Virus record (IMG/VR): IMGVR_UViG_3300021478_000036
Location: 1-54,389 of that record
DNA from: a virus
Lineage: Duplodnaviria; Caudoviricetes
Length of the DNA stretch: 54,389 nt
Direction: 5' to 3' (one strand)
The notes under the pieces: generated by a model
What the model saw: only the letters and a program-made list of their open reading frames with translations
Told to the model about the DNA's origin: nothing
The model's database searches: none
Made by a program: the position numbers and the translations under genes
In this document: positions 980-53,100 of the stretch, in pieces
Position numbering within the stretch: position 1 is the stretch's first letter
How the letters are laid out: each line of letters opens with the position of its first letter

Positions 980-3723
980 TAAGCTTTCCTCAACTCCTTC
1001 ACACTCGTTGCCATCTTAAGATGCACAACATTTACTTGACCTTGAAGTTCAAGTTCCCACAGAGTAGCCTTAAACCCATCTGGTATCAATAGAACCTCTT
1101 CGTTCCTTAGTATTTCCTTTACCATTACAAACCTATCATCTGCATACACTCTAATGATTAACCATTGCGTAGCAGGATCAAAGACTTGATCTTGAGAAGT
1201 ATTTCTTGTCATAGGTATAATAGTTACTTCTGACGGTACATCAAATATAATCTTAATGGCTTTGAACGATGCTGGAAACGCCATACGAAACGGTTTGGAC
1301 TCCCACGTCCAATCCCATAATGTAGTAGTACCCGGATTAGCTACTGGTGGGTTCCACTGCATTACTCTGCCATCACTTAATATCTCAAACAATTGACCTG
1401 ATATCTCATCGAAATACATATTCTCAACTGTAGTAGAAAAATGAAGATAAGTAAATGAAGTATTCTTGTCCTCTTTATCTAGGACAAAACCATGTAGTAC
1501 TGCTCCATCAGGATCAACATCAATTAATCCTGTACCTCTTATAAAAGCCACATAGTTTAATCCGAAATGTCCAGCAGCCCAATTCCAAGGCTGTAACGTA
1601 TTGTGAAACTCTTTTTCATAAACAAATTCAGTTATACTTACAGTGCCGCTAGAGTTCAGCAATATAATGCCGTTAGGTGAAGCATAGTAAGCGCCTTCAC
1701 CAGATGACACTACACTGCCCCTACTAATACATGGCTCATTGGATGATATTCTACCAATAGTCATCGTATCAGGAGTAACACCAGTAGCAATGAACGGTGT
1801 TCCTTTACACATGATGTTTAAGGAAGCACCATTTGCAGTTAGTCCCACAATTGGATAATCCACTGTGAGAGCATAAGAAGCAGGCCAAGCGTGAGGCAGA
1901 TAAGCAGCACTGAACCATATCTCCCGTTCGTTACTCCACCCTGCGGCTATACCATTTGCCATCATCACTACCCCCTGAAGATCAATGGGGGGTGCTGTAT
2001 AAAGCTCGCTTGACAGTGGAGAATTAAAAACGACATCCTGTGGCAACGCCGAGTCACTATAGTTAGTTACTCCGGTCGGAAACGGAGGTCCAAACTCTGT
2101 CACTTGATAGTACGATGCATTGCCAGAACTATCAACGACAGTACGATATAAGCGTACTTTGGCTAAATTTCGGTTGGTTGTAATACCAGCAGCGGGAGCA
2201 GGTATAGTTATTGTCCACGTACCAGTAGGATTTCCTGTTTCATTTGTCGGCGGACTAGCTGCACCCTCTTCACCATATGCACTAACGTATGTATAAACAT
2301 ATGCTCTGTTCTCAATATCAGTAACATCAAACTGAATTTGATCACCAACCAACACACCGGCACCAGCAGTAGGCGCGGTTATATTAACCGTTGTTGTGTT
2401 TACTACCCCTTTAGTATCAATCTGTGTAGCTATGGGAAACACTATATTTTGGAATTGGATGCTATCACCAGCACCAACACCACTGCTAGCTACATCTTGG
2501 CTCATCGTAACCTTAAGCCCTGATACACTAGCCACTGTAGTATTAACAATAAGTGCTGCCGAATTTGTAACATCCGTAATTGTCATACCAGCAACAATGC
2601 CAGTAACACTATTCATAGCTAAAGTATTAGGGGATGTGGCTCCACATTGTATTGCATCTCCAGCATTAACAGTACTAGCTACGTTTGCACTTAAAGTAAT
2701 TTCGCTTCCTGAAACAGCAATTATAGTAGTACCAGCAGTAATTGAAGATGGGTTTGAAAGATTTGCAACTGCCATGCCAACTGTAGCACCAGCAGTATTA
2801 CTTAATACTAAAACATTAGGCGGAGGGGATTGGAAATTTATTGCAGTACCTGGAGGTATAAGAGCAGCCATATTTTGGCTTAAAGTAATATTAATTCCCG
2901 ATACAATACTCACGAAAGTACCAGTAGGGATCGAAGATGGATTTGATGGATTTATAGGTATCATACCTTGTGTGATACCAGCACTACTAGGTACAGTTAA
3001 GTACGGAGTACCAGCAGGCGCTCCAACAGTTATTGATTGAGTTATTACAGTTGGAACTAAACTAGTAGAAGTAATAGCTGAGTATGTCGGCGTAATCGAA
3101 TTTGGATTAGTAGCAGCAGTTGTCGTATGTGTTACTGTAGTGGCAGTCTTATCTGTGATAGACATGCCATCGCTAAGATCGGTAGTATTATTAAGAGTTA
3201 ATGTTGTGCCGCCAGCAGGAACGGCAGCAGTAGCCGTTTTTGTTAGGGTTGTTGGTGCCGGTACAACAGTAGGAGCAACAGTAGGAGTGGGGATACCAAT
3301 GACCAACATAGGCCCAAGTGTATTAGTTGCCGGATCATATGTTCTGTATTGAGGAGGTGGCTTTATAGTAGGCCAATCTGGATTATCACCAGTTGAAGCA
3401 TACTGATCAGATGGGAAAAAATAATACCTATTCCATTGATCCCCAACAACGGGGTTGCGTATTACAGCCATATATGGATCAGGAAACTCTAACCATTTGG
3501 AAGCAGAAAAATCAGGGGGTTCAGCAACACTTTCCGGTATACGATACACTTGCTGCGTGTCACTATGGATAGTTGTGTAGACCTGAAGAGCCTGCCGAAA
3601 CCCTCTAACGCCTCCCTTGTAGAGCCATGTATTTTTCGCATACTGCGCGTTTCTATCGGGAAGGAGTATTCCATCCCGAAGTGGCATCATACCAGAGAAA
3701 TCTTGTATAGTAATTACAGACAT
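979..3723 (-). CDS. Tail tubular/stabilisation (nozzle-like) protein with inserted beta-rich repeat domains
   Basis: 914 aa. N-terminus ITIQDFSGMMP...AQYAKN, plus RAYVYTYVSAYGEEG, EIWFSAAYLPHAWP and C-terminal WESKPF. This pattern and position fit podovirus tail-tubular-B-like proteins. Confidence 0.65.
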   Translation of the reverse strand: MSVITIQDFSGMMPLRDGILLPDRNAQYAKNTWLYKGGVRGFRQALQVYTTIHSDTQQVYRIPESVAEPPDFSASKWLEFPDPYMAVIRNPVVGDQWNRYYFFPSDQYASTGDNPDWPTIKPPPQYRTYDPATNTLGPMLVIGIPTPTVAPTVVPAPTTLTKTATAAVPAGGTTLTLNNTTDLSDGMSITDKTATTVTHTTTAATNPNSITPTYSAITSTSLVPTVITQSITVGAPAGTPYLTVPSSAGITQGMIPINPSNPSSIPTGTFVSIVSGINITLSQNMAALIPPGTAINFQSPPPNVLVLSNTAGATVGMAVANLSNPSSITAGTTIIAVSGSEITLSANVASTVNAGDAIQCGATSPNTLAMNSVTGIVAGMTITDVTNSAALIVNTTVASVSGLKVTMSQDVASSGVGAGDSIQFQNIVFPIATQIDTKGVVNTTTVNITAPTAGAGVLVGDQIQFDVTDIENRAYVYTYVSAYGEEGAASPPTNETGNPTGTWTITIPAPAAGITTNRNLAKVRLYRTVVDSSGNASYYQVTEFGPPFPTGVTNYSDSALPQDVVFNSPLSSELYTAPPIDLQGVVMMANGIAAGWSNEREIWFSAAYLPHAWPASYALTVDYPIVGLTANGASLNIMCKGTPFIATGVTPDTMTIGRISSNEPCISRGSVVSSGEGAYYASPNGIILLNSSGTVSITEFVYEKEFHNTLQPWNWAAGHFGLNYVAFIRGTGLIDVDPDGAVLHGFVLDKEDKNTSFTYLHFSTTVENMYFDEISGQLFEILSDGRVMQWNPPVANPGTTTLWDWTWESKPFRMAFPASFKAIKIIFDVPSEVTIIPMTRNTSQDQVFDPATQWLIIRVYADDRFVMVKEILRNEEVLLIPDGFKATLWELELQGQVNVVHLKMATSVKELRKA

Positions 3724-3927: not shown

Positions 3928-3950
3928 GTTCTTTTCCTCACTATAGTTAG

Positions 3951-4283
3951 TTACGCTAAGACTATCGCATACGGTTGCATGTGCGACGGGATTACGTTAG
4001 CAGTAGTAGTCCATACTTCAGTTTGCGCTTGAGTAATGATGACCGAAAGATTACCAACGATAAACGATGCGCCCCAAACTTCCACTTGGATTTGAGTTGC
4101 ACAAGCATTCGGATTACCTCCTTGCGCTCCTTGCCCCCAAACCTCTACTTGGGCTTGGGTTATATAAGCAATCGTAGAACCCAAAGCTATATCTATAACA
4201 GCATAAACATTAATCTTTGAAACCTCTACGGCATTATTATCTATAACAGCATAAACATTAACTTTTGAAACTTCGGTAGTCAT
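3951..4283 (-). CDS. Small virion-associated protein made of short beta-strand repeats
   Basis: EVSK[VI]NVYAVID x2 and TQ[AI]Q[VT]EVW x3; the direct DNA repeat ctataacagcataaacattaa occurs near 4193 and 4241. Confidence 0.7.
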   Translation of the reverse strand: MTTEVSKVNVYAVIDNNAVEVSKINVYAVIDIALGSTIAYITQAQVEVWGQGAQGGNPNACATQIQVEVWGASFIVGNLSVIITQAQTEVWTTTANVIPSHMQPYAIVLA

Positions 4284-6834: not shown

Positions 6835-6836
6835 CG

Positions 6837-8060
6837 TTACGTCCTCGTCACTAAAATAGTGAGGCTGACGTCAGCCAGCGTTGCATCCTGTGTGGCTGGC
6901 GCAACCATTTGAAGTATATCGCCTACCACTAATATCCCTCCGCTACCTGCCAATGTAACTGATGTATGGCTTGCTGGTGTAACGGTCAGAGTGCCTATTG
7001 CAGTAGTCACTCCAGCACTTATTTTGTTCAAAGTAAATGCTGCGTTTGCCGTTGCTTGCGTACTATCATATACTAATGCACCAGCAAGATTAGCGGGGAC
7101 ATTAATTCCTATTGGCATTGGTACGTTAATGACTTGACTTGCGGGCGGTTTCCCCGGATAAATAAAAGGTATCGGAACAGGAATAACTACCCAAGTAGCA
7201 TTCTTACGCCCATATATATTATTATCAATTGGTGCTTCTGGAACACCTGAAGGCGGTATTATTCCTGATTCAGTAAGCACAGCCCATTGGTTGTTCATCC
7301 GCCCCCAAACTTCACCATCATTGGGAGCGTCAACTTGAAGAGGGTCAGGTATCCAACCACCATTATTACGGACATATATCTTACCATCAGAGGTAGCATC
7401 AACTTGAATAGGATCAGGTATCCAATTAGCATTCCTACGACTGTAAAGAGTGCCATCAAGTGGCGCATCTATAACATAACTAGTTGTAGAGTTACTAAAA
7501 CCAATCTCCTCCCAAAAATAATTGATGCCATTTGTTGCCCATTCATACAATAAATTGTTATTTGTATCAAACCATTGATCTAATACATGTTGACCAGTCG
7601 GCGGGTCTGGACCCCAAAAATATCTAATATTAGTACTAACGACTGCACTTCCGGGTAGCAAGCTAACAACTGGAGGTATAGATGCATCACATGCAGATTT
7701 CGATGGCATATTAATTGTTAATATATCATCCCGCGGAATTGTTGAACCGACAATCTCAGTTGCTATTACAATGTTATATTGTTGTCCATCAATACCTCCC
7801 GAAATTAAAAACGAAAGAACAGTACCAGTTGCATTTAATATTGGATCGGTCAAGAACAACGGTGGATTAGTTTCGGCATCAGCAGTAAAATTATATGTCT
7901 CAATAACATGTCCAGCCAATATAGTAGTAAAATCTAAAATAACTAAAATTTGGTCTGAAACTTTTTTAACTATAGGGCCAAACTGTTTTGTGCTGTCTGC
8001 ATAAAAATATGCAGTACGATTGTTTACTGTACCAGCAGGAAGAAGATAATTAGATGTCAT
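6837..8060 (-). CDS. Tail fibre-related protein with four DAP-x-DG-x-x-Y-x-R-x-N-x-x-W repeats
   Basis: Repeats [48 protein letters not shown] and [16 protein letters not shown]. Confidence 0.65.
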
Positions 8061-9031: not shown

Positions 9032-9884
9032 TCGTTATTCCCCCAAATATCCATAGTATGAACACATAACTATCGACAGCAGGAGCAGTCGCGAAAGTTA
9101 TAGAACCACCAGATGCATCGAACTGTATTGTAGGCTCTTGCCATACACCATCAATAGATACAAACAATGAGTTAGGAGTTGTAACATTGGGTATAAACAA
9201 ATCAGTTGAGATAAGAGAGAACGTAGTAGTGACCCCATCAAGCTCAAGTGGTTGCATTCTTTTAATTGTAATATTGCCGCTTACGCCACTATCTCCACCA
9301 GTATCAGGTGGAGGAGTACCCACACCAGATATAGCCCAAAAGTTAGTCACACCGTCAGTAACATAATCATACCAAACATGATCAATCAAATTATACCAAC
9401 GATCAAGTAAATTAGCATTTGTTGGTGCAATAGCAGAAACAAAAAATCTAGGGTATTTATTAACAAAAACTTCTTGAGTGCCATATTGTATAAAATTGTT
9501 TTTGTATGTATCTCCTTCAGAACCACAAGCACAACCACCCTCACCAAATACATTAATTATTAACAAATCACTATGTATAGAACCATCATCAAGTACCGCA
9601 TTAGCTACAACGTTATAAGACATATCTGAATAGCCGCCATCAACATAAAATGTCACTAGTGGATCGGCAACCACAACACTATCTATAGTGAGTGGAGGTA
9701 CTCCACCCGGTTCAATTTCAAACCAAATTTTATCAACTGAAACAGTCGGAATTAACTTGCTATAGTCCATAGTAAGTTGTACGCGCCCATCAAGAGGTTT
9801 ATCGAACGAACCCATCTTGTTCGTACTATTGACATAATAGTATGCTGTATTAGTTTGAGAGAATGGTATGGGATAATTCATCAC
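9024..9884 (-). CDS. Tail/fibre adaptor-like structural protein, paralogous to the N-terminus of 6837..8060
   Basis: Shares TAY[YF]Y..ST..[MF]G and D[RQ]W[YF]...Y[DE]..T[DN]G...FW motifs with 6837..8060; C-terminal DGVTTTFSL...VSIDGVWQEP...ITFATAP module. Confidence 0.6.
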   Translation of the reverse strand: MMNYPIPFSQTNTAYYYVNSTNKMGSFDKPLDGRVQLTMDYSKLIPTVSVDKIWFEIEPGGVPPLTIDSVVVADPLVTFYVDGGYSDMSYNVVANAVLDDGSIHSDLLIINVFGEGGCACGSEGDTYKNNFIQYGTQEVFVNKYPRFFVSAIAPTNANLLDRWYNLIDHVWYDYVTDGVTNFWAISGVGTPPPDTGGDSGVSGNITIKRMQPLELDGVTTTFSLISTDLFIPNVTTPNSLFVSIDGVWQEPTIQFDASGGSITFATAPAVDSYVFILWIFGGITSG

Positions 9885-15019: not shown

Positions 15020-15377
15020 TCAACACTCCTATAATTCTATTAATTGTTTCAGTAATCCTTTTACATACAGGAACAAATGCATGATAATCCATACTAGAAC
15101 CTATTTGCGGTATAGGTTCAACATCGAACTCCTTTTGAAATATAATAAGATTTATAGCTTGAATGCATGGCCGAAGGAATGTCATCGGCATACGTTCATC
15201 ACAATTACCTTGAGCTGGCACTTTAACAGGTGGAGCTTCAAGTCCAAACGCAAACTCAATAAGCTCATTAATTTTATTACAAATACCCGCCACTATCTCT
15301 GTGCGCGCAGAGATACCGCAATCACTATGGATAGTGATCTCAAGTGGTGGTGGGAAATTGCGTTCCCAAATACTCAT
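15012..15377 (-). CDS. Hypothetical structural protein
   Basis: 121 aa; shares S[MLI]DY..F and [AT][VI]N.I motifs with both neighbours. Confidence 0.6.
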   Translation of the reverse strand: MSIWERNFPPPLEITIHSDCGISARTEIVAGICNKINELIEFAFGLEAPPVKVPAQGNCDERMPMTFLRPCIQAINLIIFQKEFDVEPIPQIGSSMDYHAFVPVCKRITETINRIIGVLNG

Positions 15378-16467: not shown

Positions 16468-16513
16468 CGTATCACTCCTTTGCTTCGCTCCGAAGGTCAC
16501 TAACGTTAGTGAG

Positions 16514-21496: not shown

Positions 21497-21515
21497 GTGT
21501 GCTCACTATAGTTAG

Positions 21516-33085: not shown

Positions 33086-33101
33086 CTATAGTGAGATTGA
33101 G

Positions 33102-36634: not shown

Positions 36635-38496
36635 AACGGATTTATATCGACTTTGAAACGTATTGGGCTGCTGACTATTCAGTCGGCAAAATGGTTACTA
36701 TCGACTATATACTTGACCCACGCTTTGAGACTATGGGTTGTGGTGTCGCTATAGATAGTGACAAACCGTTCTGGTTGCCGAGGGATAAAGTACGTGATTA
36801 TTTAGAAACACTTGTTCGTGAACCCTATATGTGCATATCACACAACGCATTGTTCGATGCATCTATACTTGCGTATAGATACCAAATTCACCCAACGTTA
36901 ATTATAGATACGATGGGTATGGCGCGGGCTATACTTATGGCTGAGTTGCCGCAAGGTAGAGTATCACTTAAAAAGATCGCTCAGTTCTTAGATATTGGTA
37001 CTAAGGGTGAGACGAACCTTAAGACTAAAGGTTTGACACGTAAAGAACTGGAAAGCAAGCCATTTCTCTATAGAGAATTTGCTAAGTATTGTTTGAACGA
37101 TACTGATTTGTGCCGTAAGATATACTTGAAACTTAAAAACAGATTTCCGGCAACAGAGCATATCATTATGGATATGATTATTAAAACTACAACACAACCT
37201 CAATTACAATTAAATGAGGAACATTTACAGGAACATCTTAAAGAAGTTATAGCTACAAAAGCTGAGACGCTTGCGGCTGTTAGCCAATGGTTTACTGTTG
37301 ATGACTTAATGTCTAATCCTAAATTTGCACAGGCGCTTAAATTCTTTGGCGTGCAACCACCAACAAAGATATCTCCTTCAACTGGTAAACTAACGTGGGC
37401 TTTTGCTAAAGCTGACGTACAGTTTATGGAGCTATTAGAACATCCTGATCCTGATGTACAAGCATTGATGGCGGCAAGATTAGGCCACAAAAGTACATTA
37501 GAAGAAACACGTACTGAGAGGTTTATTTCTATTGTTCATAGTACCAAGAACTATTGGAACGATACTTATATACCTATGGCGCTTAGATATGCTGGCGCGC
37601 ATACTCATAGGTTCAGTGGTGATTGGGGGCTTAACTTACAAAATCTCCCTAGTCGTAAATCTAAAAAGTTACGTCAATCTATTATAGCTCCTCCGGGGCA
37701 TGTTATCCTTGCCGCAGATGCGGCACAAATAGAAGCTAGGTTAGTTGCTTGGTTCGCTAGACAACGAGGCTTATTGAATGCATTTGAGCAAGGACGCGAC
37801 GTTTATAAAGAATTTGCTTGCGACTTGTTTCATATTGAATTAGAGGATGTAACGAAAATACAACGCTTTATTGCAAAGGAATGTATACTTGGATTAGGTT
37901 TTCAGTTAGGTAAGGTTAAGTTGCTTAATACGCTAATCACTAAAGCAAAAGACCAAAACATACCGATTGAAATTCCATTCACTATAGAACAAACAGGGAT
38001 ATGGGTTGATACATATCGAAATAGGATGAATAATATTAGACAATATTGGGGCCATCTCAGAGATTGCTTACCAGTTATATCAGGTATACCAACAGATTAC
38101 AAGATTGGACAATGCTGTATAATAGAACATCAAAAGATTAGATTGCCTAATGGGTTGTATTTGTACTACAATGACTTACATCTTAATGATAAGAATGAAT
38201 GGTGGTTTACATATGGTGGTAGACAAAAGAAGCTATATGGTGGTAAATTGTTAGAGAACTTAGTGCAAGCATTTGACCGAATGATTGTTATGGATGCAGC
38301 ACTTAGAATATTTCAACGTACTGGCTATCGTATCGCACACCAGATGCACGACGAGATACTATATATAGTGAGCGAGGGCGAGGCCGACGCTTTAAAGCAA
38401 GTAGTGCTTGAAGAAATGGAACGTAGACCAACATACGCTCCTGATTTGCCTCTCAAAGCAGAAGCAAAGATAGCACACAATTACGGAGATCTTTAA
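36631..38496 (+). CDS. Family A DNA polymerase with 3'-5' exonuclease
   Basis: ExoI DFET, ExoII HNALFD, ExoIII YCLND, NLQN, motif A DAAQIEAR, motif B RFIAKECILGLGF, motif C HDE. Confidence 0.92.
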   Translation: MKRIYIDFETYWAADYSVGKMVTIDYILDPRFETMGCGVAIDSDKPFWLPRDKVRDYLETLVREPYMCISHNALFDASILAYRYQIHPTLIIDTMGMARAILMAELPQGRVSLKKIAQFLDIGTKGETNLKTKGLTRKELESKPFLYREFAKYCLNDTDLCRKIYLKLKNRFPATEHIIMDMIIKTTTQPQLQLNEEHLQEHLKEVIATKAETLAAVSQWFTVDDLMSNPKFAQALKFFGVQPPTKISPSTGKLTWAFAKADVQFMELLEHPDPDVQALMAARLGHKSTLEETRTERFISIVHSTKNYWNDTYIPMALRYAGAHTHRFSGDWGLNLQNLPSRKSKKLRQSIIAPPGHVILAADAAQIEARLVAWFARQRGLLNAFEQGRDVYKEFACDLFHIELEDVTKIQRFIAKECILGLGFQLGKVKLLNTLITKAKDQNIPIEIPFTIEQTGIWVDTYRNRMNNIRQYWGHLRDCLPVISGIPTDYKIGQCCIIEHQKIRLPNGLYLYYNDLHLNDKNEWWFTYGGRQKKLYGGKLLENLVQAFDRMIVMDAALRIFQRTGYRIAHQMHDEILYIVSEGEADALKQVVLEEMERRPTYAPDLPLKAEAKIAHNYGDL

Positions 38497-38579: not shown

Positions 38580-38915
38580 ATGCAAATGCCAGAGTTTAAT
38601 TTCGATGTGGACATTCCATCGCTTCGTGAAGCGATTGGGTTGACACATACCGAGGCTAGAGTACTGTTAATGCTAATGCAGGAGGAAATAGCTACGCATG
38701 AGCAGCTTGTTGTTATCAACTCGCGTGTTAGACAACTCATGTATAGTTTAAGGAACAAATTAAGATCGCAAAGCATTAACATCGTAAATGACCGCGATAT
38801 TGGTTACTCGATCCCGCTTAAATATAAGCTGCGTATTAAGAACCTTATCGAGGGTGAATTAGTTGAAGAGATGAATAAGGCTAGAGAGATTTCGGAAAGA
38901 CTACCACATGAGTAA
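38580..38915 (+). CDS. Winged-helix (OmpR C-terminal-like) DNA-binding protein
   Basis: GLTHTEARVLLMLM...VRQLMYSLRNKL...IVNDRDIGYSI. Confidence 0.7.
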   Translation: MQMPEFNFDVDIPSLREAIGLTHTEARVLLMLMQEEIATHEQLVVINSRVRQLMYSLRNKLRSQSINIVNDRDIGYSIPLKYKLRIKNLIEGELVEEMNKAREISERLPHE

Positions 38916-39603
38916 ATTTGCTACAATTAGAGCACCAAAACAGAATTTTAGTTTTACGTGGAGTAAAATTAAGAATTTTGAAACTTGTCCGCGTCGATAC
39001 TTTGAAATTGACGTGGGTAAAAAATTTGAAGAGAGTAGTCCACAGTTAGACTATGGGTTTGAGATGCATGAAGCGGCAAAACAACGTGTTGCAAACAATA
39101 AACCACTTCCTGAGAAATTTGAGATGTTAGAGAAGTGGATACAAAAATTCACTAAAGATAGTGACGATCCTGCTGTAGGTATACAGACGGAATTGAAGCT
39201 TGCTATTGATAAGAACATGAACCCATGCAGTTGGTTCGATAAGAAGACCTATATGCGCGGAGTAATTGATTTTTTAAAGATACGAAAGAAAGTTGCTCTT
39301 GCCGTTGATTGGAAATCGGGTGAGCATAAGGACGATATTATTCAATTAGGTTTATTTGCTCAATTAGTGTTCTCGCACTACCAATGGGTTGAAGCTATTA
39401 AGACTATGTATGTGTGGATTAAAGAGGATGATAGCTCAGAAGAAGATTTATATAGAAAGGATATGCCAGACCTCTGGAATGAAATTAACCCACGGGTAAG
39501 AGCATTAGAAAGAGCGCATGAGTTAGATGATTTTCCCCCTAAAAAAAGTGGGCTGTGTAAAGCTTATTGCCCGGTGGTGACATGCGAACACAATGGAAGA
39601 TGA
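38908..39603 (+). CDS. PD-(D/E)XK Cas4-like exonuclease
   Basis: TCPRRY, RGVIDFL, VDWKSG, QLGLFA and a C-terminal LC..YCP...C cluster. Confidence 0.8.
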   Translation: MSKFATIRAPKQNFSFTWSKIKNFETCPRRYFEIDVGKKFEESSPQLDYGFEMHEAAKQRVANNKPLPEKFEMLEKWIQKFTKDSDDPAVGIQTELKLAIDKNMNPCSWFDKKTYMRGVIDFLKIRKKVALAVDWKSGEHKDDIIQLGLFAQLVFSHYQWVEAIKTMYVWIKEDDSSEEDLYRKDMPDLWNEINPRVRALERAHELDDFPPKKSGLCKAYCPVVTCEHNGR

Positions 39604-40162: not shown

Positions 40163-41573
40163 TGAGTACAACTTTCCAGTAGTAGACCCGAAGAAACCCG
40201 CATTCGCTATACAAAAGCGATCATGTGCAGTTATGGTAGGAGAGCTTAGGGACTATAACTTAAATGATCTAGGTACAGGCAAAACACGCTGTGCATTGTG
40301 GTCGTTTGACTATCTACGTAAGAAACAACAGGCAAAGCGTATGCTTGTTATCTGCCCACTCTCTACTATGAACCGAGTGTGGGAAGCTGAAATACAAATG
40401 CACTTTACTGACCTTACTTGTGCCGTACTTCACGGCACCAAGGAAAAGCGCCTTAAAAATTTAAATCGTAATGTTAATATCTATATCATCAATCACGATG
40501 GAGTTGGCACTATCTATAGTGAGCTGATGGAACGGACGGACATTGATGTAGTGTGTATCGACGAGCTAGCTACATTCCGTAATATGAACAAGCGTTCCGC
40601 CCGTGTTAAGCAACTAGCTCATGGTAGGAAGTTTGTGTGGGGTATGACTGGTTCCCCTATGCCAAGGGAGGTTACTGATGTATGGAGCCAGTGTTGTATA
40701 GTAACACCGCACACTGTGCCAAAGTATTTTTCTTGGATACGTGCCACACTAATGCTTAAGGGTCCAGCAGGTCCGTATGATTGGAGGGCACGTCCCGGTG
40801 CAGAAGTGATGGCGGTTAACTATATGAAGCCTAATGTTAGGTTCACATTAGATGATGTAGTTGAGCTACCACCAAAGATAATGCAATACCACGAAGTTCC
40901 TATGTCGGCACAACAAGATAAAGTATACAATGAAATACGTAATAAAGCAGTGAGTTTAATTGGAACTAAGATAGTTGATGCACTCAATGCTGGTGCAGCT
41001 ATCCAGAAGCTGTTACAGATAGCTTGTGGGTATGTATATACTAGGGATGAGGACGACGATAAAAAGAAAGAGACTATTACACTTGACAATACTGAGCGGT
41101 TACAGTATACACTCGACTTGGTAGACAGTACATCACGTAAGGCTATTATATTCGTGCCGTTCTTAAATGCACTCAATGGTGTAAGCGACATGCTTACAAA
41201 AAATAAAGTAGATCATGCTATTGTACATGGGGGTATAACAAAGACGCATCGTAATCTAATCTTTAGTGCGTTCCAAGATACACCGCGGTATAAAGTATTG
41301 CTGGCCCACCCGGTCTGCATGAGCCACGGCTTGACTTTGACGGCGGCAAACACTATAATCTGGTTCGGGCCGACCCTGAGTTTGGACACGTTCTATCAAG
41401 CGAATGGACGGATCACTAGATTAGGACAGGAACATAAGCAAGTGATTGCTATGTTAGGTGGAACCAAAGTAGAGAGGAGAATTTATGGTATACTAGGACG
41501 TAACGAGAAAGTGCAACAGCACTTCTTAGACATAATTAAGAGTGAAACCACAAGAGCAATGGCAGCAGAATAG
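40149..41573 (+). CDS. SNF2-family helicase
   Basis: DLGTGKT, VICPLS, IDEL, MTGSP, HGLTL, QANGRITRLGQ; start MGILD after GGAGCTAC. Confidence 0.9.
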   Translation: MGILDEYNFPVVDPKKPAFAIQKRSCAVMVGELRDYNLNDLGTGKTRCALWSFDYLRKKQQAKRMLVICPLSTMNRVWEAEIQMHFTDLTCAVLHGTKEKRLKNLNRNVNIYIINHDGVGTIYSELMERTDIDVVCIDELATFRNMNKRSARVKQLAHGRKFVWGMTGSPMPREVTDVWSQCCIVTPHTVPKYFSWIRATLMLKGPAGPYDWRARPGAEVMAVNYMKPNVRFTLDDVVELPPKIMQYHEVPMSAQQDKVYNEIRNKAVSLIGTKIVDALNAGAAIQKLLQIACGYVYTRDEDDDKKKETITLDNTERLQYTLDLVDSTSRKAIIFVPFLNALNGVSDMLTKNKVDHAIVHGGITKTHRNLIFSAFQDTPRYKVLLAHPVCMSHGLTLTAANTIIWFGPTLSLDTFYQANGRITRLGQEHKQVIAMLGGTKVERRIYGILGRNEKVQQHFLDIIKSETTRAMAAE

Positions 41574-42060: not shown

Positions 42061-42090
42061 TCATCACTAACGATAGTGAGGTCAAAGCCA

Positions 42091-43285: not shown

Positions 43286-46147
43286 ATGGCAAACTTAGAT
43301 ATAACTAAGGCTCGCAAATATTTAGAGATGCTGGCTCCTATATGTGAGAATGGTTACGTCACAATTCATCGCTTGCGTAATGGGCTACCTGGTAATGCCC
43401 ATAAAACTATTGACAGTGCATTAAAAGATTTAGCATATTGGGTTCAACGTGATGTTGATACATATATGTGTTTATCCGCAACTGAAACAGCTACCCTTAA
43501 CGGTAATAGATATTCTATAGCAGTTCGCAAAAGCGAAAAAGTAATTGGAACAAAAGCACTATGGATGGACATGGATGTTAAGGAAGATGGCTATGCTTCT
43601 CCAAATGAATTGAAGCAAGCACTCAGTAAATTTATGGGTGAGTTTCTTAGCCCAACACTCATAGTAAAGAGTGGTGGTAAAGGAGGTATGCATATTTATT
43701 GGATATGCAATGAGTTCATACTGCCAGATACATTTGATAAGCTATCTAAAGCTCTTGCCGCATTAGCTCGCGAGAAAGGAGTTAAATTTGATAGTGCATG
43801 TACTGTTGATAGAGTACGAGTGCTTCGTGTGCCGGGAACCTATAATTTTAAACACGGCACACCAGATCCTGTTGAAATATTTTACGATAAAGGTAGAATA
43901 TATACGCTCGAGGAACTGGAAACTAAATTAAGCGTGGTCACTAACGTTAGTGATGATGACGAACCCGACGATGTATTGCAGCAACCAAAGAACGAATACC
44001 CGCCATCTGATATAGATCGGGTAGCTACAGTTTGTCCGTTCGTAGCTAAATCACTAGAAGATGGTGGTACTAACCATAATAAAGAAACGCTTTGGACTTA
44101 CACTATAATGTTGGCAAGCTATTGTGCCAATGCTAAAGAGACAGCTATTCGGTTTAGCGATAAACATCCTGCATATAGAGAAGAGGATGTTGTTGCAAAG
44201 CTTCAGTATCATATAGATGATCACAAAGCTCGGCCTAAAGTAGGTCCGCCTAAGTGTGAGACGTTTAATAGTAATGGTGCAGCAGAGTGCAAGACGTGCC
44301 CACATCTTAAACTCAAGCGCAGTCCACTCAATGTTCCCGGTGCCGTTTCTGCTGCTAATTTTAAGCAACCAAGCACTAACAATAGTGATCTACCGCCGGG
44401 ATATTTTCGTGGGAAGGATCAGCATATCTATACAGAGAAAGCAAAAAAGGTAGATGGTATACTTGAAAAACAAACCATTAAAGTATTTCCATATCCTATA
44501 AAAACTGGATCAGCATGGGGAGAACCTAATTGTAATGATTATCATATGCATTTTATAACATATGAAGAAGGAAGTAAAGAGAAAGAAATAATATTACCGT
44601 ACTCTCTCACTAGTGGCGATGAACCTTTTAAACGTACTATGGCTCAACAAGGTATAGCTTTGCCATGGTACACTAAAGATACACGGGAGGCTTTCGTGTC
44701 TTACCAAGAGATGTTACGCAGTAGAGCAGGAGGTATGGTGCGGGGTGAGCCCGTAGGTTGGACTATGAAGAATGGAGAGTTTGATGGGTTTAGTTTTGAT
44801 GGGCAATCCTTCTCTCCTAATAGTCACTGCGTAGTACCTAAACTTAAAGGCGCTTTGCTACAAAATTATAGTCCTATGGGTAGTCCTCAACCGTGGATTG
44901 AAATAGCCCAAGTTATTACTGAACAGCAACGCCCCGGTCTTGATGTGGTATTGTTATCAGGTTTTGCAGCACCACTAGTACCAATGACTGGTCACTCTGG
45001 TATCATACTTGGATGTTATAGTTCTGAAACAGGTATAGGCAAGAGTACATCATTGGAAACATCTACAGCTATATGGGGTCATCCAGTAAACTCACGCTGT
45101 GGGTTGAATGATACAATTAATATGGCAATGAACAAAGCTGGTGCTATTAGACATTTACCACTCAATTGGGATGAAGTTAAAACCAAACAACAGTTTGGTA
45201 ACTTAGCTAGTATAATATTCCAAATGACTGAAGGACGAGAGAAGGGTCGTCTTAATCGTGCATCAGCAGCAATGGATATGAAAGACTTTCAAACCATGTT
45301 AACTTATGCAGCTAATTCATCAGTGCTTGATGCTGTACAAGAAAGTACTAAAGGTACTTCTGCTGGTGTAGTACGCGACTTTGAATTTCGTATACCAACC
45401 TACCAACTCAAATCAAGTTACACAACTGGTGAAGTGCAGAATATGTTGCATAAACTTAAGACTAACTATGGTATGGTTGGGCTTGAGTATGCTAAATATT
45501 TAGGGGAGAACGGTAGAACCATTCATAAGAATGTAATGGACTTACAGAATGTACTTGAAAAGAAATTTAATGTAGGTAGGGATGAACGTTATTGGGCTGC
45601 TGCTATGGCTGTTATACTTTGTGCCGCTAAAATTGTTAATGATCTAAAGTATGCTAGTATAGATATAAATGCTTTATACGGATTTTTAGTAAAAGAGTTT
45701 GTGCGTATGCGTAATAAAAAAGATAGATCACCTACAGATTACACTAAAGAGGATGCACTTATATCAGTATTAGCACAATATCTCTCAATCAATAGAGCAA
45801 ATAATACTATCATTCTAAATGAATTGTGGACTACTGCCGGAAGACCTCCTATTGGTAAGATAGAAATAGAAGGTAGGGGTACATCTAGAGAAAACCAACT
45901 TAGAGAAGTTAATGTAGCAATTGGTAGGGAAGATAAAAGGATACGATTTACAGATAGTAGCCTTAGTCACTTCTGTAGAGAAAGAGATATACCAACTAGT
46001 GCAATAAGAGAAGGATTAAGAAATATATTAGGAGGCACAAATGCTATTAGAAAAATCACAGGAGGTACAGAAATAATATCGGTTAACCAATACTGTTGGA
46101 TAATAGAGCTAGGAGGTACACAGTATGAAAAGAAGTTTGGGTTTTAG
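43286..46147 (+). CDS. Primase-helicase (AEP/RepB-type primase plus DUF927/helicase domain)
   Basis: LWMDMD, SGGKGGMHIYW and RVLRVPGTYN in the primase part; Cys cluster; Walker A GIGKST and Walker B WDE. Confidence 0.8.
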   Translation: MANLDITKARKYLEMLAPICENGYVTIHRLRNGLPGNAHKTIDSALKDLAYWVQRDVDTYMCLSATETATLNGNRYSIAVRKSEKVIGTKALWMDMDVKEDGYASPNELKQALSKFMGEFLSPTLIVKSGGKGGMHIYWICNEFILPDTFDKLSKALAALAREKGVKFDSACTVDRVRVLRVPGTYNFKHGTPDPVEIFYDKGRIYTLEELETKLSVVTNVSDDDEPDDVLQQPKNEYPPSDIDRVATVCPFVAKSLEDGGTNHNKETLWTYTIMLASYCANAKETAIRFSDKHPAYREEDVVAKLQYHIDDHKARPKVGPPKCETFNSNGAAECKTCPHLKLKRSPLNVPGAVSAANFKQPSTNNSDLPPGYFRGKDQHIYTEKAKKVDGILEKQTIKVFPYPIKTGSAWGEPNCNDYHMHFITYEEGSKEKEIILPYSLTSGDEPFKRTMAQQGIALPWYTKDTREAFVSYQEMLRSRAGGMVRGEPVGWTMKNGEFDGFSFDGQSFSPNSHCVVPKLKGALLQNYSPMGSPQPWIEIAQVITEQQRPGLDVVLLSGFAAPLVPMTGHSGIILGCYSSETGIGKSTSLETSTAIWGHPVNSRCGLNDTINMAMNKAGAIRHLPLNWDEVKTKQQFGNLASIIFQMTEGREKGRLNRASAAMDMKDFQTMLTYAANSSVLDAVQESTKGTSAGVVRDFEFRIPTYQLKSSYTTGEVQNMLHKLKTNYGMVGLEYAKYLGENGRTIHKNVMDLQNVLEKKFNVGRDERYWAAAMAVILCAAKIVNDLKYASIDINALYGFLVKEFVRMRNKKDRSPTDYTKEDALISVLAQYLSINRANNTIILNELWTTAGRPPIGKIEIEGRGTSRENQLREVNVAIGREDKRIRFTDSSLSHFCRERDIPTSAIREGLRNILGGTNAIRKITGGTEIISVNQYCWIIELGGTQYEKKFGF

Positions 46148-48140: not shown

Positions 48141-48154
48141 CTCACTATTTATAG

Positions 48155-48673
48155 TTACTTCGGTACAGCGGTGCTCGCATCACTTACCGAAACTTTCCAT
48201 TCTTGCTTGGTGGGGTTCCATACCGCCGCAACATAACTGTTAACGATATCTTCAGGAGGCGGAGGTAACTCCTCACCAGCTGGTGGCTCCCACGGGTGAG
48301 TAGGAACAGGAGGTGGTTCTGGAAGACCCTGATCGGGATGAGCCGGAAGACCATGATCGGGATGACCGGGATGATAGATAGGTGGGGACACTCCTACATT
48401 ACCACCCGGTAAGCCTTGATCTGGACGAACAGGAGGTGTCCAAGAGCCCGGAGGACGATTACCGGGACGCTCTCCACCACCCCAACCATAACCCGGATCA
48501 ATAGGACGATCCCAAGAACCCGGAGGTCTGTTACCTACATGCGGGGGCCTACCACCCCAACCGGGAGGTAAGCCCTGATCTGGATGTTCACCACCATTAC
48601 CACCGGGAGGTAAACCCTGATCGGGATGGCGATCACCATAGTAGAGTTTCCCTACGAATACAACGTCTGTCAT
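48155..48673 (-). CDS. Pro/Gly-rich repeat protein (HPDQGLP repeats)
   Basis: [HR]PD[QH]GLP x5 and GNRPPGSW x2; AGGAG RBS. Confidence 0.75.
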   Translation of the reverse strand: MTDVVFVGKLYYGDRHPDQGLPPGGNGGEHPDQGLPPGWGGRPPHVGNRPPGSWDRPIDPGYGWGGGERPGNRPPGSWTPPVRPDQGLPGGNVGVSPPIYHPGHPDHGLPAHPDQGLPEPPPVPTHPWEPPAGEELPPPPEDIVNSYVAAVWNPTKQEWKVSVSDASTAVPK

Positions 48674-48728
48674 ATACTTTCTCCTAGTTAAGTCACTATG
48701 ATTAGTGACCGAGTTTACGCCGTAAACT

Positions 48729-49127: not shown

Positions 49128-49484
49128 CTACCAACGTCGCCAACTTGATACGGCACCTCCCTTGTTATAGGCTGAAGCTTTAACCCTCCCAGTTATCTTG
49201 TTATCACTATCGCTAGTGACGTCAGGGTCTTTCGCTGCCGCTATACGACCCGCAATCTTAGGAGGGGAAGGGGTAGGGATATCGGCGGAAGCTACTGGTC
49301 CGCCGTCATCATACTTTTTTGTTTTCTTCACAGGTTGATACTCCTCTTTACCTTTAGCTGCTTCACGCTTTTCAGAGAGCATGATAGCAACAGCTTGTTT
49401 CCGTTTTGTGACAGGCGGTCCTTTTGCACTACCGGAGTGCAACTTTCCTTCTTTAAACTTATGCATCACCTCATCGTATGGCAT
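49128..49484 (-). CDS. DUF6496-like protein with GG-x-V repeats
   Basis: VMHKFKEGKLHSGS..GPPVTKRKQAVAIMLSE; YDDGGPV and YNKGGAV. Confidence 0.7.
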   Translation of the reverse strand: MPYDEVMHKFKEGKLHSGSAKGPPVTKRKQAVAIMLSEKREAAKGKEEYQPVKKTKKYDDGGPVASADIPTPSPPKIAGRIAAAKDPDVTSDSDNKITGRVKASAYNKGGAVSSWRRW

Positions 49485-49581
49485 ATTACATTTTCCTTCT
49501 GTATTACTCTATGCCATTATTCGTATCATTATTTATAGTGACGCTTTCTGTCTAGGCAGTTTTTTAGAGTGACCCATTACG

Positions 49582-49906: not shown

Positions 49907-49971
49907 CTGTATATCTCCTTTCTGTTTTTCAGAAGTCGATTACCGGGCACTTATCTCACTATCCATAGTGA

Positions 49972-50154: not shown

Positions 50155-50177
50155 GTCATTCTCCTCACTATCAATAG

Positions 50178-53100
50178 TTACAACCCGTAGTAGTTTTGCA
50201 ACTGTTGTATCCTCTCACGATTACGGTTGGTGAGTGTTTTTCCTAATCCTGATGGTGCTGTTGACCTTCGGATGGCTTTCGCTACATCCTGCGGAGTTAT
50301 ACGATCCTCTGGATGTTGCAGGTTGTATGCTGATACTTGTTGCATTGCTCTAAGTCTATCCGGTCCTGCATTAGATGTACCCACAGCATTGAGTAGTTGA
50401 GAGACTTCATCCCTTGAAGTCTTTTCTGCTCTTAGCTCTGCTGTACGTGCTTCTCTATATCGTTCCTGTCTTGCCGGTGTTAGACCAAGACCTTGCATGA
50501 TTGCCTCACCAGTACTATAAGGAGGCATACCCGGCACACCAGTCCCAGTTGGTTTCCCTTCTGTGTAGCCACTCCATGCTTTAGCCCAATCATTTATGAT
50601 CTTAAGAGGTACTAACTTAGCAATAGCGTCAGCATAGTTCCCCTGCCGTAGATCATTAATGCCATGAACTACATTTGATACTGTTTGACCGGGAGCACCA
50701 CCCACTAATCCCCACATCCATGCAGAGAAGTCAGGTAAGCTAGAACTCTGTGGCTCACCGAACACTAACAAACTTCCAAACCCTATACGATCGGCACCAA
50801 AGAAACTAAACGGACCTAATGAACCAAGTAAGCCATCCATAGCTAGATTAGCAAATCCTGATCCACCCAGCTCTGCAAACTTCTCTCTCATAGCATCCTG
50901 AGCATCCGACCAATTATAATTAGTAATATTAAGAGCACCAGCGAGAGCAAGGGCAATTCGCATAGGATCAGAAGGAAGGCCATTAACACCCGTAAGCGCC
51001 GCTGTAGTTCCAAAGAGATATGCAATTCGTTTCCATGCCTCTACTTTAGCTTCACGGGTTTCACCTTTGAATGCGTTATAAAAACTCCTACAAATATTCA
51101 TCATCATGTTCATGCCCCACCCTCTGAACTGCATTGTGGGGCGCATGTACCATTTAGACATAATAGGTGACATGTTAGCTCGAGACAATAAACCTTGAGA
51201 CTGACTTACCATATCAAACGATGAACGTGTAGCTTGTTCTATATTCTCTCCAGCCTCTCTAGCCCTAATATACGCCAAGGCATGTCCCCATACTCTATTG
51301 TATGCTTCTGTCGATCCCAACAGTTGCCTAGACATACGGTCTAGTTTACTTGACCATGCGTCTAGTTTACCACTGGACATATGATAGATCGAAGTATCAA
51401 ACCCTTGATCTGGATGTACACGTCCAGTTGCTATAGCTTTATCCATAAAGGCTTGAAGCTCTGCGCCGTACCTATGGCTCTTCAATGCATCCATTAAACC
51501 TTCTACATAGTTAAGCCCCTTACTATCTTTAGTGATCACATTCTTAGCTTCTATGACTGAACGCCAAGCGTTCTTAAAACCGGCACCAGAAAGTATTGAG
51601 TGCAGCCTAGCAGCTTCTCCCATAGTGCCTAGTCCACCATACTTAGCTGCTACCATGTCAGCGGTTATGATCTGATGTGTAGCATGTGTAATCACATGTC
51701 CAACAGATACCATGTGGTTTAGGAACGATATGGCTCCTGCTTTTCTTAGTACGGGTGCTACCTTCTTGCCGAGCTTACTATCCTCACCACCCACATAGCT
51801 AGGTGAGCCAAAGAAATTGTCACGGTCATGTAGCTCATCAAGTATAGCACTACGCTCAGTGTTGCCGCGTTCATATTCATTGTCTTTAGCATGTTGGATC
51901 ATTTCATTTTGTATATCGCCCATTTCCTTAGCGTACTTGTTACGAGATATTAAAGCGTTATGCATGTCAGCATATTTGTCATAGGTCTTAATGAAGTCTG
52001 AGTCCCAACCAGCTACCATCTTACGCGGTAGTAATGTCTTAGCAATACGATTGCCTTCCATTGAACCAATGGCGGTATCAGTCAGTAATTGTTTAACCGA
52101 CTTCTTTTGATCTTCGGTATAGTCGGTTCGTCTATCTATGGAGTTTATTAGCTTCTTAAACAATGGGGAAGCTACTTCCATCTGGGAATACCAACCAGTT
52201 TGTTTCAGTGCCGGTTCAGCTATCTTAGCGAACGCACCAGTTGCTTTCAATTCCTCAAAGCGTTTCTTAGCTGACGATAGATTGTCATGTCCAGAATAAT
52301 ACTTATCATTAACCTCCACACGCCAAGCTCGGTTGTCTTTAGCAAAGCCCATAGACCCATCAGGGTTCTGCCAATTCTCTGCCTTAGAAGTTACTTCACC
52401 TTTGTCATTGTAGTGTACAACATATGGACGAGAGTTGGGTGGTTGTTTACTTAGAAACTCTCTCATCGCTTCAGGAGTTTTAAACTCATATGTGTTGTCG
52501 TTTATTTGCTTGCCATTTGTTGGTGGGGTTATTTTATAACGTGCATTGATAAGCCAATCACCAGCATGATCTAATGGCACATACGGTCCCTTCGGCACCG
52601 AGAGTGCATGTATATCATCTGTAGTGTCGATGCCTCTGTTAGCTAGCCATTCCGTATCGTTCTCTGTTAGGTCATCATCTAGTATTCGTTGCCGTAGTCC
52701 AGCTTTATTTTTATCCCAATCCGTCTCGAATTTATTATGGTACTTGGCGTATTCTACTGCATCCACTGATTTTGGATTGGTTGGATCGAGCTTCGGCTCT
52801 GCTATGAATTTTCTTCCCTCACTATCTATAGTATGTAGCAAGGCATCCACGGCTATCTCTGCGCGCTCCCTACCCTTGGCAGCATAGTCATCTACTAACT
52901 TACCAAACCATTCCTTTGCTTTCGGATGTAGAGCGTTGAAGGCGCTAAGTAATTCACCACTCTTATCCATTGCTTGTTGGTGCTTATAGAATAGATTGGG
53001 GTCTTCCTCCCCCTTCGCTCTTGCTGCTGCAAGGCGGTCTGCTGCCGTCTTTAACCAACCGTTCATCCCCTCTCCTATAGGAGAGCGTGGATCGAACCGA

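Follow-up and report, generated by a model that had tools for sequence, protein, structure and literature searches.

A clade-specific, evenly spaced palindrome in tailed phages and the putative dimeric protein that may read it

The tailed-phage contig IMGVR_UViG_3300021478_000036 (Duplodnaviria; Caudoviricetes), the entire 54,389 bp of which were analyzed and are hereafter called the window, carries the palindrome TCACTA-N4-TAGTGA dispersed over its whole length. We counted 41 copies, 38 with a four-base spacer (N4) and three with a three-base spacer (N3), and found that they are strongly enriched at gene junctions and spaced more evenly than chance, at roughly one per kb, a regularity that is significant in four genomes. 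The trait is specific to one phage clade, and its TTACC form shows no enrichment in the bacterial genomes that were scanned. Dispersed palindromes are known from few phage groups, in which they are unexplained; here the trait can be traced across a deep clade. The stepwise drift of the site, the selection acting on it within genes and its regulated spacing together indicate that an important whole-genome function exists. As to what that function is, we tentatively favor, at somewhat less than an even chance, a stoperator-like system in which a homodimer encoded by the lineage would use the sites as operators in early promoters and as a genome-wide network of roadblocks or insulators, in a virulent-looking phage. 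Because cultured Rhizobium phages belong to the clade (RHph_TM27A, with 61 sites), bench work on the question is feasible.

The palindrome and its spread in the phage clade

The first-pass annotation of this DNA, made from the letters alone, had listed 17 exact copies, 21 with one mismatch, four with two mismatches and three N3 variants, and the counts hold. TCACTA-N4-TAGTGA occurs exactly at all 17 listed positions (100 dinucleotide shuffles: mean 0, maximum 0), and copies with at most one mismatch number 38, that is, the 17 exact and the 21 listed ones (shuffles: mean 0.18, maximum 1). The two-mismatch copies at 3560, 25606, 38356 and 52819 are all present, and two further ones were found at 475 and 14769, which brings their total to six; the N3 variants at 6848 and 29149 are exact and that at 25045 has one mismatch. 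When the spacer length was scanned, N4 was enriched (17, 21 and 6 copies at 0, 1 and 2 mismatches) and N3 weakly so (two exact and one one-mismatch copy), while spacers of 1, 2, 5, 6 and 8 gave no copy in the window at up to one mismatch. Five one-mismatch matches with a spacer of 0 look like shifted readings of N4 sites, judging from inspection of the site sequences. Codon-preserving shuffles, which had been proposed as a check, did not reproduce the count either: 23 copies lie wholly within automatically called open reading frames (ORFs), versus 2.58 ± 1.45 in the shuffles (maximum 7, n = 100). Isolated half-sites are not enriched (14 TCACTA and 11 TAGTGA outside palindromes versus a median 6-mer count of 12), so the palindrome is the unit.

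Numbering the 16 positions of the 38 N4 sites, we found C4 and T11 in all of them and A6 and G13 in 37 each; positions 5, 6, 11 and 12 are fixed as A/T, and positions 7 and 10 nearly always are. The spacer was said to begin and end in A/T, and indeed its first base is A/T in 36 of the 38 sites and its last in all of them. That last base is an A in 31 sites, and its mirror position a T in just 17. The commonest variant, C2 to A, is found in 10 one-mismatch sites.

The motif is conserved in related phages, as the earlier annotation had suggested should be examined. Six IMG/VR relatives, with portal proteins 81–91% identical and DNA 70–80% identical, carry the same motif at 0.5–0.9 copies/kb and keep it at orthologous sites, where the identity of the core is 123/132 versus 229/330 for the flanks. 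At in-gene sites, third-codon positions are identical in 58 of 63 cases (92%) in the core versus 263 of 465 (57%) in the flanks (Fisher p = 5e-9), which shows purifying selection on the DNA word and not just on the peptide. All 18 in-gene N4 copies lie in a single frame, xTC-ACT-Axx-xxT-AGT-GAx, which is read as x-T-x-x-S-D/E; one of the two alternative frames through the site is blocked by TAG and TGA.

These in-gene sites bear on a further explanation, namely that the palindrome is a selfish or recombinogenic mini-repeat that spreads by recombination or module exchange and does nothing for the phage. A recombination-promoting role has reportedly been proposed for the PeSL cassettes of T4-type phages. 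For homologous recombination, 16 bp is a short length. The in-gene sites are orthologous, are not insertions and show synonymous conservation far above that of their flanks, the even spacing points to selection on each copy, and no transposase or homing-endonuclease family was recognized in general scans against Pfam or PHROGs, which covered 42 of the window ORFs on a contig that is 89% complete (CheckV). Enrichment at gene boundaries would suit a selfish repeat, as would the deletions in Cluster O mycobacteriophages that, in the sections of the report considered here, are inferred to stem from recombination between copies of a 17-bp palindrome (PMC4351075). On balance, we regard a selfish origin as very improbable.

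Portal homologues in IMG/VR define a large family (L001–L081), which we arranged in an approximate FastTree portal tree of 78 rows with a midpoint root and SH-like supports (three of the 81 loci, with portal matches of <550 residues, were omitted). More distant members of the family lack TCACTA-N4-TAGTGA and have palindromes of their own: TTACC-N6-GGTAA, with a minority of N5 sites, in L051 and the cultured Rhizobium phage RHph_TM27A (hereafter TM27A; 60.9 kb; host Rhizobium phaseoli); TTACTC-N4-GAGTAA in L008 and L020; TTACTC-N3-GAGTAA in L010 and L013; and TCACGCCC-N-GGGCGTGA in L038. The palindromes are confined to one 57-row clade (support 92) of the tree, in the order TTACC, TTACT(C), TCACTA, and the 21 rows outside the clade hold at most five T-Y-A-C...G-T-R-A palindromes per locus, which is near control. 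Among other whole genomes, G001 (64.8 kb) has 49 exact N6 and 19 exact N5 sites of the TTACC type, with 0 for the control pattern; at up to one mismatch, copies number 81 in G001, 55 in G002 and 61 in TM27A, versus Markov expectations of 0.6, 0.1 and 1.3, respectively.

Outside the clade, the complete outgroup genome G005 shows nothing comparable, and Pseudomonas phage Rollin, which shares the primase-helicase, has no such palindrome family in 50 kb of its 61.3-kb record. The outgroup G004 (L098–L099) has nine copies of TTAACAG-S-CTGTTAA, all at 21191–33144 and, as dense as the sites of the clade, about one per 1.3 kb. This 12-kb stretch includes homologues of the ATPase and VWA genes of the window, and the copies stand beside Shine-Dalgarno sequences or terminators. 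The G004 palindrome may be an ancestral, local form of the trait, and its confinement suggests that the original role was linked to a single transcription arm.

In bacteria the TTACC form is scarce. Five of the six exact TTACC-N6-GGTAA sites in an 8.7-Mb Bradyrhizobium assembly fall on its 60.5-kb phage contig, and 41 bacterial genomes of the same order hold 0–8 sites each, at or below the control pattern. The commonest exact 16-mer of the window, with three copies there, turned up in 10 IMG/VR stretches. Known relatives account for three of these, and the other seven hold a single copy each, so the multi-copy trait is confined to the clade.

The regularity of spacing recurs in the larger site sets. 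Gaps between the 41 copies of the window have a coefficient of variation (CV) of 0.58 versus 0.97 under random placement (p = 0.0002); no two sites are closer than 208 bp, and the largest gap is 2910 bp, versus 5293 bp expected (p = 0.0008). The CV is 0.63 for the 61 sites of TM27A (p < 0.0002; largest gap 2.9 kb), 0.58 for the 81 sites of G001 (largest gap 1969 bp) and 0.67 for the 55 sites of G002. G003, with 23 sites under a loose motif definition only, shows no regularity (CV 1.06); the motif definitions for both G002 and G003 were crude.

Placement of the sites in the window

After doubtful starts had been re-read, 22 of the 41 copies stand at gene junctions and 19 inside genes. Gene calls were our own longest-ORF calls, which span ~94% of the sequence. 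The automatic ORFs enclose 23 N4 copies, a number that falls to 18 on re-reading, as the copies at 16497, 26553, 27736, 31115 and 46149 move to junctions. The copies are listed below together with the two-mismatch copy at 25606; L numbers are loci of relatives.

2054..2069, N4, one mismatch: within ORF 979-3723 (-), frame x-T-x-x-S-D
3938..3953, N4, one mismatch: junction; the motif includes the TAA stop of 3951-4283 and precedes the start of 3724-3927 by 11 nt
6848..6862, N3, exact: last codons of ORF 6837-8060 (-)
9676..9691, N4, one mismatch: within ORF 9024-9884 (-); retained in L003 and L005
11041..11056, N4, exact: junction, after a hairpin 3' of the capsid-like gene 11110-12183 and 4 nt before the start of 10606-11037; retained in L002, L003, L005 and L006
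13131..13146, N4, exact: within ORF 12221-13288 (-); retained in four relatives
15322..15337, N4, exact: within ORF 15012-15377 (-); retained in four of five aligned relatives
16497..16512, N4, exact: 2 nt past the portal gene stop (16514), with a Shine-Dalgarno sequence and ATG ~33 nt downstream on the - strand; a junction in our reading, placed within ORF 16195-16542 by the automatic call
19083..19098, N4, one mismatch: within ORF 18965-19522 (-); exact in L002 and L003
20746..20761, N4, one mismatch: junction; the motif takes in the stop codon of 20759-21007 as well as the start codon (ATG) of 20547-20756
21503..21518, N4, one mismatch: junction, with tRNA-Tyr on one side and the start of 21194-21496 on the other; three-base overlap with the 3' end of tRNA-Tyr
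22497..22512, N4, one mismatch: junction at the start of 21742-22500
24024..24039, N4, one mismatch: 1 nt upstream of the start of the terminase large subunit (24023, - strand)
25045..25059 (-), N3, one mismatch: holds the -10 TATAAT of the 12/12 leftward sigma-70-type promoter 25077-25050
25606..25621 (+), N4, two mismatches: occupies the spacer of TTGACA-17-TACAGT, a rightward promoter (25598-25626)
26169..26184, N4, one mismatch: within ORF 25634-26233 (+)
26553..26568, N4, exact: between ORFs 26235-26513 and 26617-26871; overlapped by a doubtful 43-aa ORF
27736..27751, N4, one mismatch: 2 nt past the stop of 27468-27734
28439..28454, N4, one mismatch: within ORF 28336-28602 (+)
29149..29163 (+), N3, exact: holds the -10 TATGAT of the promoter 29130-29158 (11/12), which drives gene 29218-30447
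29357..29372, N4, exact: within ORF 29218-30447 (+)
30448..30463, N4, one mismatch: 1 nt past the stop of 29218-30447, followed by the terminator 30468-30487
31115..31130, N4, exact: 28 nt downstream of the promoter 31058-31086 and 7 nt upstream of the ATG at 31138
33079..33094, N4, one mismatch: gene junction
34062..34077, N4, exact: within ORF 33449-34816 (VWA/DUF2201)
35328..35343, N4, exact: within ORF 34895-35887
35975..35990, N4, exact: within the Xre/Cro-type helix-turn-helix gene 35881-36201, in the same frame (L-T-K-I-S-E)
36746..36761, N4, one mismatch: within the DNA polymerase gene 36631-38496
39149..39164, N4, exact: within the PD-(D/E)XK nuclease gene 38908-39603
40507..40522, N4, one mismatch: within the helicase gene 40137-41573
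42064..42079, N4, exact: 4 nt past the stop of 41542-42060; its end merges into the GAGG Shine-Dalgarno sequence of the next gene; identical in L001
43216..43231, N4, one mismatch: the motif includes the TAA stop of 42076-43218 and precedes the primase-helicase start by 55 nt
43938..43953, N4, exact: within the primase-helicase gene 43286-46147; identical in L001
44373..44388, N4, one mismatch: within the primase-helicase gene; lost in L001
46149..46164, N4, exact: 2 nt past the primase-helicase stop and 70 nt upstream of tRNA-Leu
48142..48157, N4, one mismatch: the motif contains the TAA of 48155-48673; on the - strand a G+C hairpin and a T run come next
48693..48708, N4, exact: gene junction
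49204..49219, N4, exact: within ORF 49128-49484
49526..49541, N4, one mismatch: gene junction
49956..49971, N4, exact: junction, 1 nt past the stop of 49972-50154
50165..50180, N4, one mismatch: the motif contains the TAA of the giant polyvalent-protein gene and at its end merges into the GAGGAG Shine-Dalgarno sequence of the next gene
51520..51535, N4, one mismatch: within the polyvalent-protein gene 50178-54389; retained in L001

Junction copies are packed between a stop codon and the next ribosome-binding site. The TAACTA variant provides the TAA stop of the upstream gene in at least five of them, and several end in ...GTGAGG and thereby merge into the Shine-Dalgarno sequence. We considered whether the sites are themselves promoters and rejected this, because about 10 of 18 junction copies end no more than 11 nt before a start codon, abutting the Shine-Dalgarno sequence, and three copies are directly followed by a terminator-like hairpin.

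Genes run leftward from ~25.1 kb, rightward at 25.6–46.4 kb and leftward again from 46.5 kb. Seven sigma-70-type promoters in the window score 10–12 of 12 with a perfect TTGACA, and three of these seven strongest promoters overlap a copy, with the -10 element inside an N3 copy (25045 and 29149) or a two-mismatch copy in the spacer (25606); a fourth strong promoter has the exact copy 31115 placed 28 nt downstream. The early arm, with 10 exact copies in 21 kb versus four in 25 kb of the structural arm, is denser in sites and its sites are better matched. Among one-mismatch sites of the window, the transcription-upstream half holds the mismatch in 17 of 21 (p = 0.007); for TM27A the figure is 18 of 25 (p = 0.04). 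The directions of transcription and replication are confounded if the origin sits between the arms. As a separate observation, four strong early promoters (25585–25603, 30519–30537, 31045–31063 and 38514–38532) share an upstream consensus, roughly AA(T/A)ATCCT(A/C)TTGACA, and so appear to belong to a single family whose promoters bear an UP-like or factor-dependent element.

The sequence rules of the site led us to favor duplex DNA bound by a putative symmetric dimer. In G003, half-sites of the forms TTACTC and TTACCC mix, with 16 mixed versus six symmetric sites. Mirror symmetry extends to the center of the site in TM27A (G-TTACC-T-Y-nn-R-A-GGTAA-C) and G002 (TTACTC-Y-n-R-GAGTAA), where the inner pairs are sterically unable to form in a hairpin. 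Independent half-sites and central symmetry thus favor duplex recognition by a symmetric dimer over a hairpin. The proposal that the copies are binding sites of a dimeric phage protein gains from both features, as well as from the link between motif and phylogeny, the lack of enrichment of the TTACC form in bacteria and the synonymous conservation.

A hairpin signal, with a 6-bp stem and a 3–4-nt loop in mRNA or single-stranded DNA, is in our judgment unlikely. In mRNA it would be a processing or stabilizing site or would modulate ribosome binding, and in single-stranded DNA it would serve anti-termination reloading or priming by the primase-helicase. Hairpins are indeed predicted in RNA at -6.2 to -12 kcal/mol (36-nt contexts), with z-scores of -1.8 to -2.9. 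Such structures tolerate the loop variation seen here (N3/N4; N5/N6 in G001), and a palindrome functions on both divergent arms. The location of many junction copies between a stop and the next Shine-Dalgarno sequence fits as well, as do the better conservation of the downstream half relative to transcription and the ability of the TM27A downstream half, (G)AGGTAA, to act as a Shine-Dalgarno sequence 3–9 nt before starts. The length of Okazaki fragments resembles the ~1-kb site spacing. However, none of the six two-mismatch copies is compensatory, nor do the 21 single-mismatch copies show any compensatory change; the commonest variant, C2 to A, makes an A.G mismatch; the strand compatible with U.G is the sense strand in only eight of the 16 mixed G003 sites, the other eight giving C.A; and the mirror symmetry includes central positions that cannot pair. 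The sequence is moreover fixed per genome, beyond what structure demands, so that a sequence-reading protein is required regardless, and no Rfam family was found besides two tRNAs.

Two related ideas were dropped. For N4-like hairpin promoters read by a virion RNA polymerase, the G002 homologue of the giant virion protein matched InPase, SprT-like, LPD39 and DarB-like families in Pfam and PHROGs, and not RNA polymerase. For initiator sites, a tandem-repeat search of TM27A and G001 found no origin iterons related to the palindrome.

Candidate readers and proposed function

Five window genes encode proteins that may read the site.

29218..30447 (+): all-alpha protein of unfamiliar fold with a conserved S-K-L/V-R motif
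35881..36201 (+): Xre/Cro-type helix-turn-helix protein (P0001)
36194..36634 (+): protein with a winged-helix-like C-terminus (our reading of the sequence; weak PHROG match)
38580..38915 (+): small OmpR-type winged-helix-like protein (sub-threshold Pfam Trans_reg_C), with homologues in G003 and TM27A (34618-34977) only
26235..26513 (+): small protein that carries two CxxC pairs and is basic at its C-terminus, as seen in its translation; no family match

The window, TM27A (18345-19100), G001, G002 and G003 all have the gene for the all-alpha protein, which the outgroups G004 and G005 lack; it is the sole non-structural, non-replication gene whose presence matches the trait in the five whole genomes. 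Its own promoter is covered by the copy at 29149, its stop abuts the copy at 30448 and a terminator, and in four of the five genomes a site lies 5–56 nt before its start. Structure models reach a mean predicted local distance difference test score (pLDDT) of 73.5 at full length and 83.7 for the domain, and the helical core is confident. Foldseek against BFVD gave as significant matches two unnamed or uncharacterized phage proteins, a sequence-profile search of the PDB returned 0 matches and the ESM Atlas no usable match. The Xre/Cro-type protein has homologues in G001, G002 and G003, with differing recognition helices, and gave 0 matches against PDB sequences; homologues of the 36194-36634 product adjoin the Xre gene in G002 and G003. 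In TM27A, a small helix-turn-helix protein encoded upstream of the polymerase gene is a further candidate.

In the stoperator-like reading that we tentatively favor, TCACTA-N4-TAGTGA would be the window version of a lineage-specific 15–17 bp palindrome of the general form T-Y-A-C...G-T-R-A. A putative homodimeric, sequence-specific phage protein would bind duplex copies and co-evolve with the site. Variant copies would serve as operators that cover the -10 element or the spacer of three of the seven strongest early promoters, which flank the probable origin, and the 40-odd dispersed copies would block or partition transcription of the phage genome by the host RNA polymerase. What leads us to place this reading first is the overlap with promoters, the arm-restricted distribution in G004 and the density and quality of the sites in the early arm. 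The first-pass annotation had likewise suggested stoperator-type silencing, and the logic of operators combined with dispersed sites is retained as the lead. Its lysogenic version is weakened by the direct terminal repeats of one relative and by the lack of tyrosine integrase (PF00589) and ParA-type (PF13614) genes in the window and its four complete relatives (G000–G004), where serine recombinases were not searched.

Several observations weigh against this proposal. The location of 19 of the 41 copies inside genes, together with the even spacing, is more directly explained by a structural or self-marking role, and three of the seven strong promoters have no copy at all. The degeneracy of the upstream half is at least partly trivial, since C2 to A yields TAA and at least five of the 10 such changes are upstream stop codons. 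Spacer length varies by one base within genomes (N3/N4 in the window; 19 N5 and 49 N6 sites in G001), which is unusual for a rigid dimer. Within the motif clade, a G+C-rich sub-clade has few or different palindromes, none in L041 and the divergent form given above in L038, so the trait is not universal there. The candidate proteins offer their own difficulties: the all-alpha protein has no recognizable DNA-binding fold, as Foldseek against the PDB gave nothing at E ≤ 0.001, and the Xre/Cro-type protein was not found in TM27A, in spite of its 61 sites, nor in G004 or G005. There is, finally, no evident lysogenic state to silence, and roadblocks in late genes need an added assumption, for example read-through late transcription.

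As the main rival reading, the same protein–site pair could instead be a genome-wide self-mark or organizer that tags the DNA every 1–3 kb with no gene-specific regulation, which we consider somewhat unlikely. The mark would separate phage from host DNA, or would coat, bridge, compact or protect the genome, and the bias to junctions would simply reflect the cheapest placement. The even spacing in four genomes agrees with this, as do the retention of sites within essential genes at a cost in protein sequence, a density of the TTACC version ~1000 times higher in phages than in bacterial genomes, as a self-identifier needs, and the virulent-looking lifestyle; that 3938–9676 holds a single copy fits gradual site acquisition. 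However, a genome-wide structural role would not lead one to expect the confinement of the related G004 palindrome to 12 kb, nor variant copies exactly on promoter -10 elements, and it is at odds with the irregular G003 sites (again under the loose definition) and with the general scans of 42 window ORFs, in which nothing ParB-, SMC- or histone-like was recognized. The first-pass alternative of coating, compaction or partition fits the even spacing. A narrower version, in which the all-alpha candidate, with sites on both sides of its gene in four of five genomes, would be the reader and the evenly spaced palindrome a clade-specific self-DNA tag for selective protection, transcription, replication or packaging, appears doubtful. 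If true, a stoperator-like global transcription brake in a virulent phage, or a tag that distinguishes phage from host DNA, would be a new principle of genome organization, and either outcome would supply a new family of orthogonal protein–DNA pairs.

The window is a tailed-phage genome with no GenBank phage match by megablast of 21.5 kb of its sequence. One of its proteins has an identical copy on a 63.9-kb contig elsewhere, so the full genome is probably ~64 kb. Both window ends (1–467 and 50178–54389) fall within a giant polyvalent virion-protein gene, and ~54 of the ~64 kb are covered; homologues of this contig-cut protein have 2200–3130 aa with InPase, SprT-like and LPD39 domains. The other structural genes recognized encode a portal or adaptor protein, the large terminase subunit and an internal virion protein, and those for replication and related functions a family-A DNA polymerase, the primase-helicase, an SNF2-type helicase, a PD-(D/E)XK nuclease and a pair of ATPase and VWA-domain proteins. 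The two tRNAs are tRNA-Tyr (21516–21600) and tRNA-Leu, and 20 small ORFs matched 0 Pfam families. The 600-bp gap between the divergent arms (25050–25630) contains four to six direct AGTCAAGTAAC iterons spaced 20, 20 and 11 nt, a perfect inverted repeat 20 nt long, built of (ATCAACC)x3, and several more inverted repeats, and is probably a replication origin or control region. Four consecutive structural-arm genes at 3724–6834 (the tail-fiber region by PHROG) have no homologue in the six other whole genomes; the single (N3) copy within 3938–9676 is consistent with their recent acquisition.

The phage family looks virulent, on the absence of tyrosine integrase and ParA genes noted above with its limit on serine recombinases. 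The "putative integrase" of TM27A (MN988461.1, L082, 42248–45331) is a homologue of the window primase-helicase (28% identity over 97% of its length), and both the label and the attL/attR features annotated there look artifactual. Two loci on a 465-kb contig of a metagenome-assembled genome (L106 and L107) were considered as prophages and rejected: they are 21.9-kb stretches, 100% identical and 62 kb apart, and the contig is probably an assembled phage concatemer, so that these loci do not speak for lysogeny. In the Bradyrhizobium assembly, which is from a cultured isolate, the 60.5-kb contig that belongs to the phage family (L111; G006 C42) stands as a separate contig and could be a carrier state, an episome or contamination.

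Comparison with known systems

The binding sites of Noc, SlmA, MatP, ParB (parS) and KorB (OB), as well as Chi and DNA-uptake sequences, are short words scattered over a replicon through which one reader acts on the whole molecule. DNA-uptake sequences also occur about once per kb, within genes in preferred frames and as inverted pairs; both Chi and uptake sequences are asymmetric words. To our knowledge, none of these organizing or self-recognition systems is phage-encoded, clade-specific and co-evolving. Unlike the chromosome and plasmid organizers, the palindrome is not accompanied by a homologue of their proteins among the 42 window ORFs scanned. If the sites do prove to be a self-DNA tag, they would be the phage equivalent of Chi or of DNA-uptake sequences, with co-evolution of site and reader.

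A limited literature search turned up no printed account of the window motif. The first-pass annotation had stated that the motif does not fit the CRP, FNR/FixK, CtrA, LexA, parS, matS or dif consensus; to the NrdR box, which was not among these, the resemblance is close. In the parts of the NrdR study used here (PMC13584703), a box is a 16-bp partial palindrome and has C4, A6, T11 and G13 with at least 63% A/T between them, and NrdR specificity is described as highly conserved. The window consensus shares these four bases at the right 8-bp distance, with at least 75% A/T between, and differs mainly at positions 1, 16 and 8–9; in a by-eye comparison, site 24024 has 12 of the 16 bases of the E. 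coli nrdAB box printed there. The sites might accordingly titrate the host ribonucleotide reductase (RNR) repressor, in the window clade only, and so raise the deoxynucleotide supply. Against such a decoy, boxes are paired 15–16 bp apart, or a further helical turn, in RNR promoters (PMC13584703, same parts), whereas the window sites are solitary, genome-wide and at least 208 bp apart. Sister-clade sites lack A6 and T11, with T or C for A6 and G+C-rich centers, and should not bind by that description. The window has no NrdR homologue, and general scans of 42 of its ORFs recognized no RNR gene. As the sites are solitary and the sister clades differ, the resemblance is probably coincidental, and a titration effect on host NrdR is highly unlikely.

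The stoperators of Cluster A mycobacteriophages, as far as the sections compared describe them (PMC9283540), are likewise one site dispersed over both arms, with copies at promoters and in short intergenic regions. Their orientation follows the direction of transcription (PMC9283540); in the window the core is symmetric, and the polarity of the mismatches stems partly from overlapping TAA stops. In contrast to the 16-bp palindrome of the window, those stoperators are asymmetric 13-mers whose orientation is essential, and they are bound by the monomeric immunity repressor of temperate phages (PMC9283540), whereas no lysogeny genes were found here and nearly half of the sites lie inside genes.

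The nearest described phenomenon, in the sections compared (PMC4351075), is the 17-bp palindrome of Cluster O mycobacteriophages, TGTTCGG-N3-CCGAACA, of which Corndog has 34 copies and the function of which is unexplained; its authors regarded it as the site of a dimeric protein and doubted a role in transcriptional regulation. Both repeats have more than 30 copies, inter- and intragenic, are conserved in position among relatives and, in the host or host-order genomes examined, are absent, rare or without enrichment. They differ in sequence, phage group and host phylum; the intergenic copies of Corndog cluster in one arm, and, within the sections compared, even spacing, synonymous selection and stepwise change of the motif are shown only for the palindrome described here (PMC4351075). 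The likeness is thus one of kind between unrelated sequences, and not homology.

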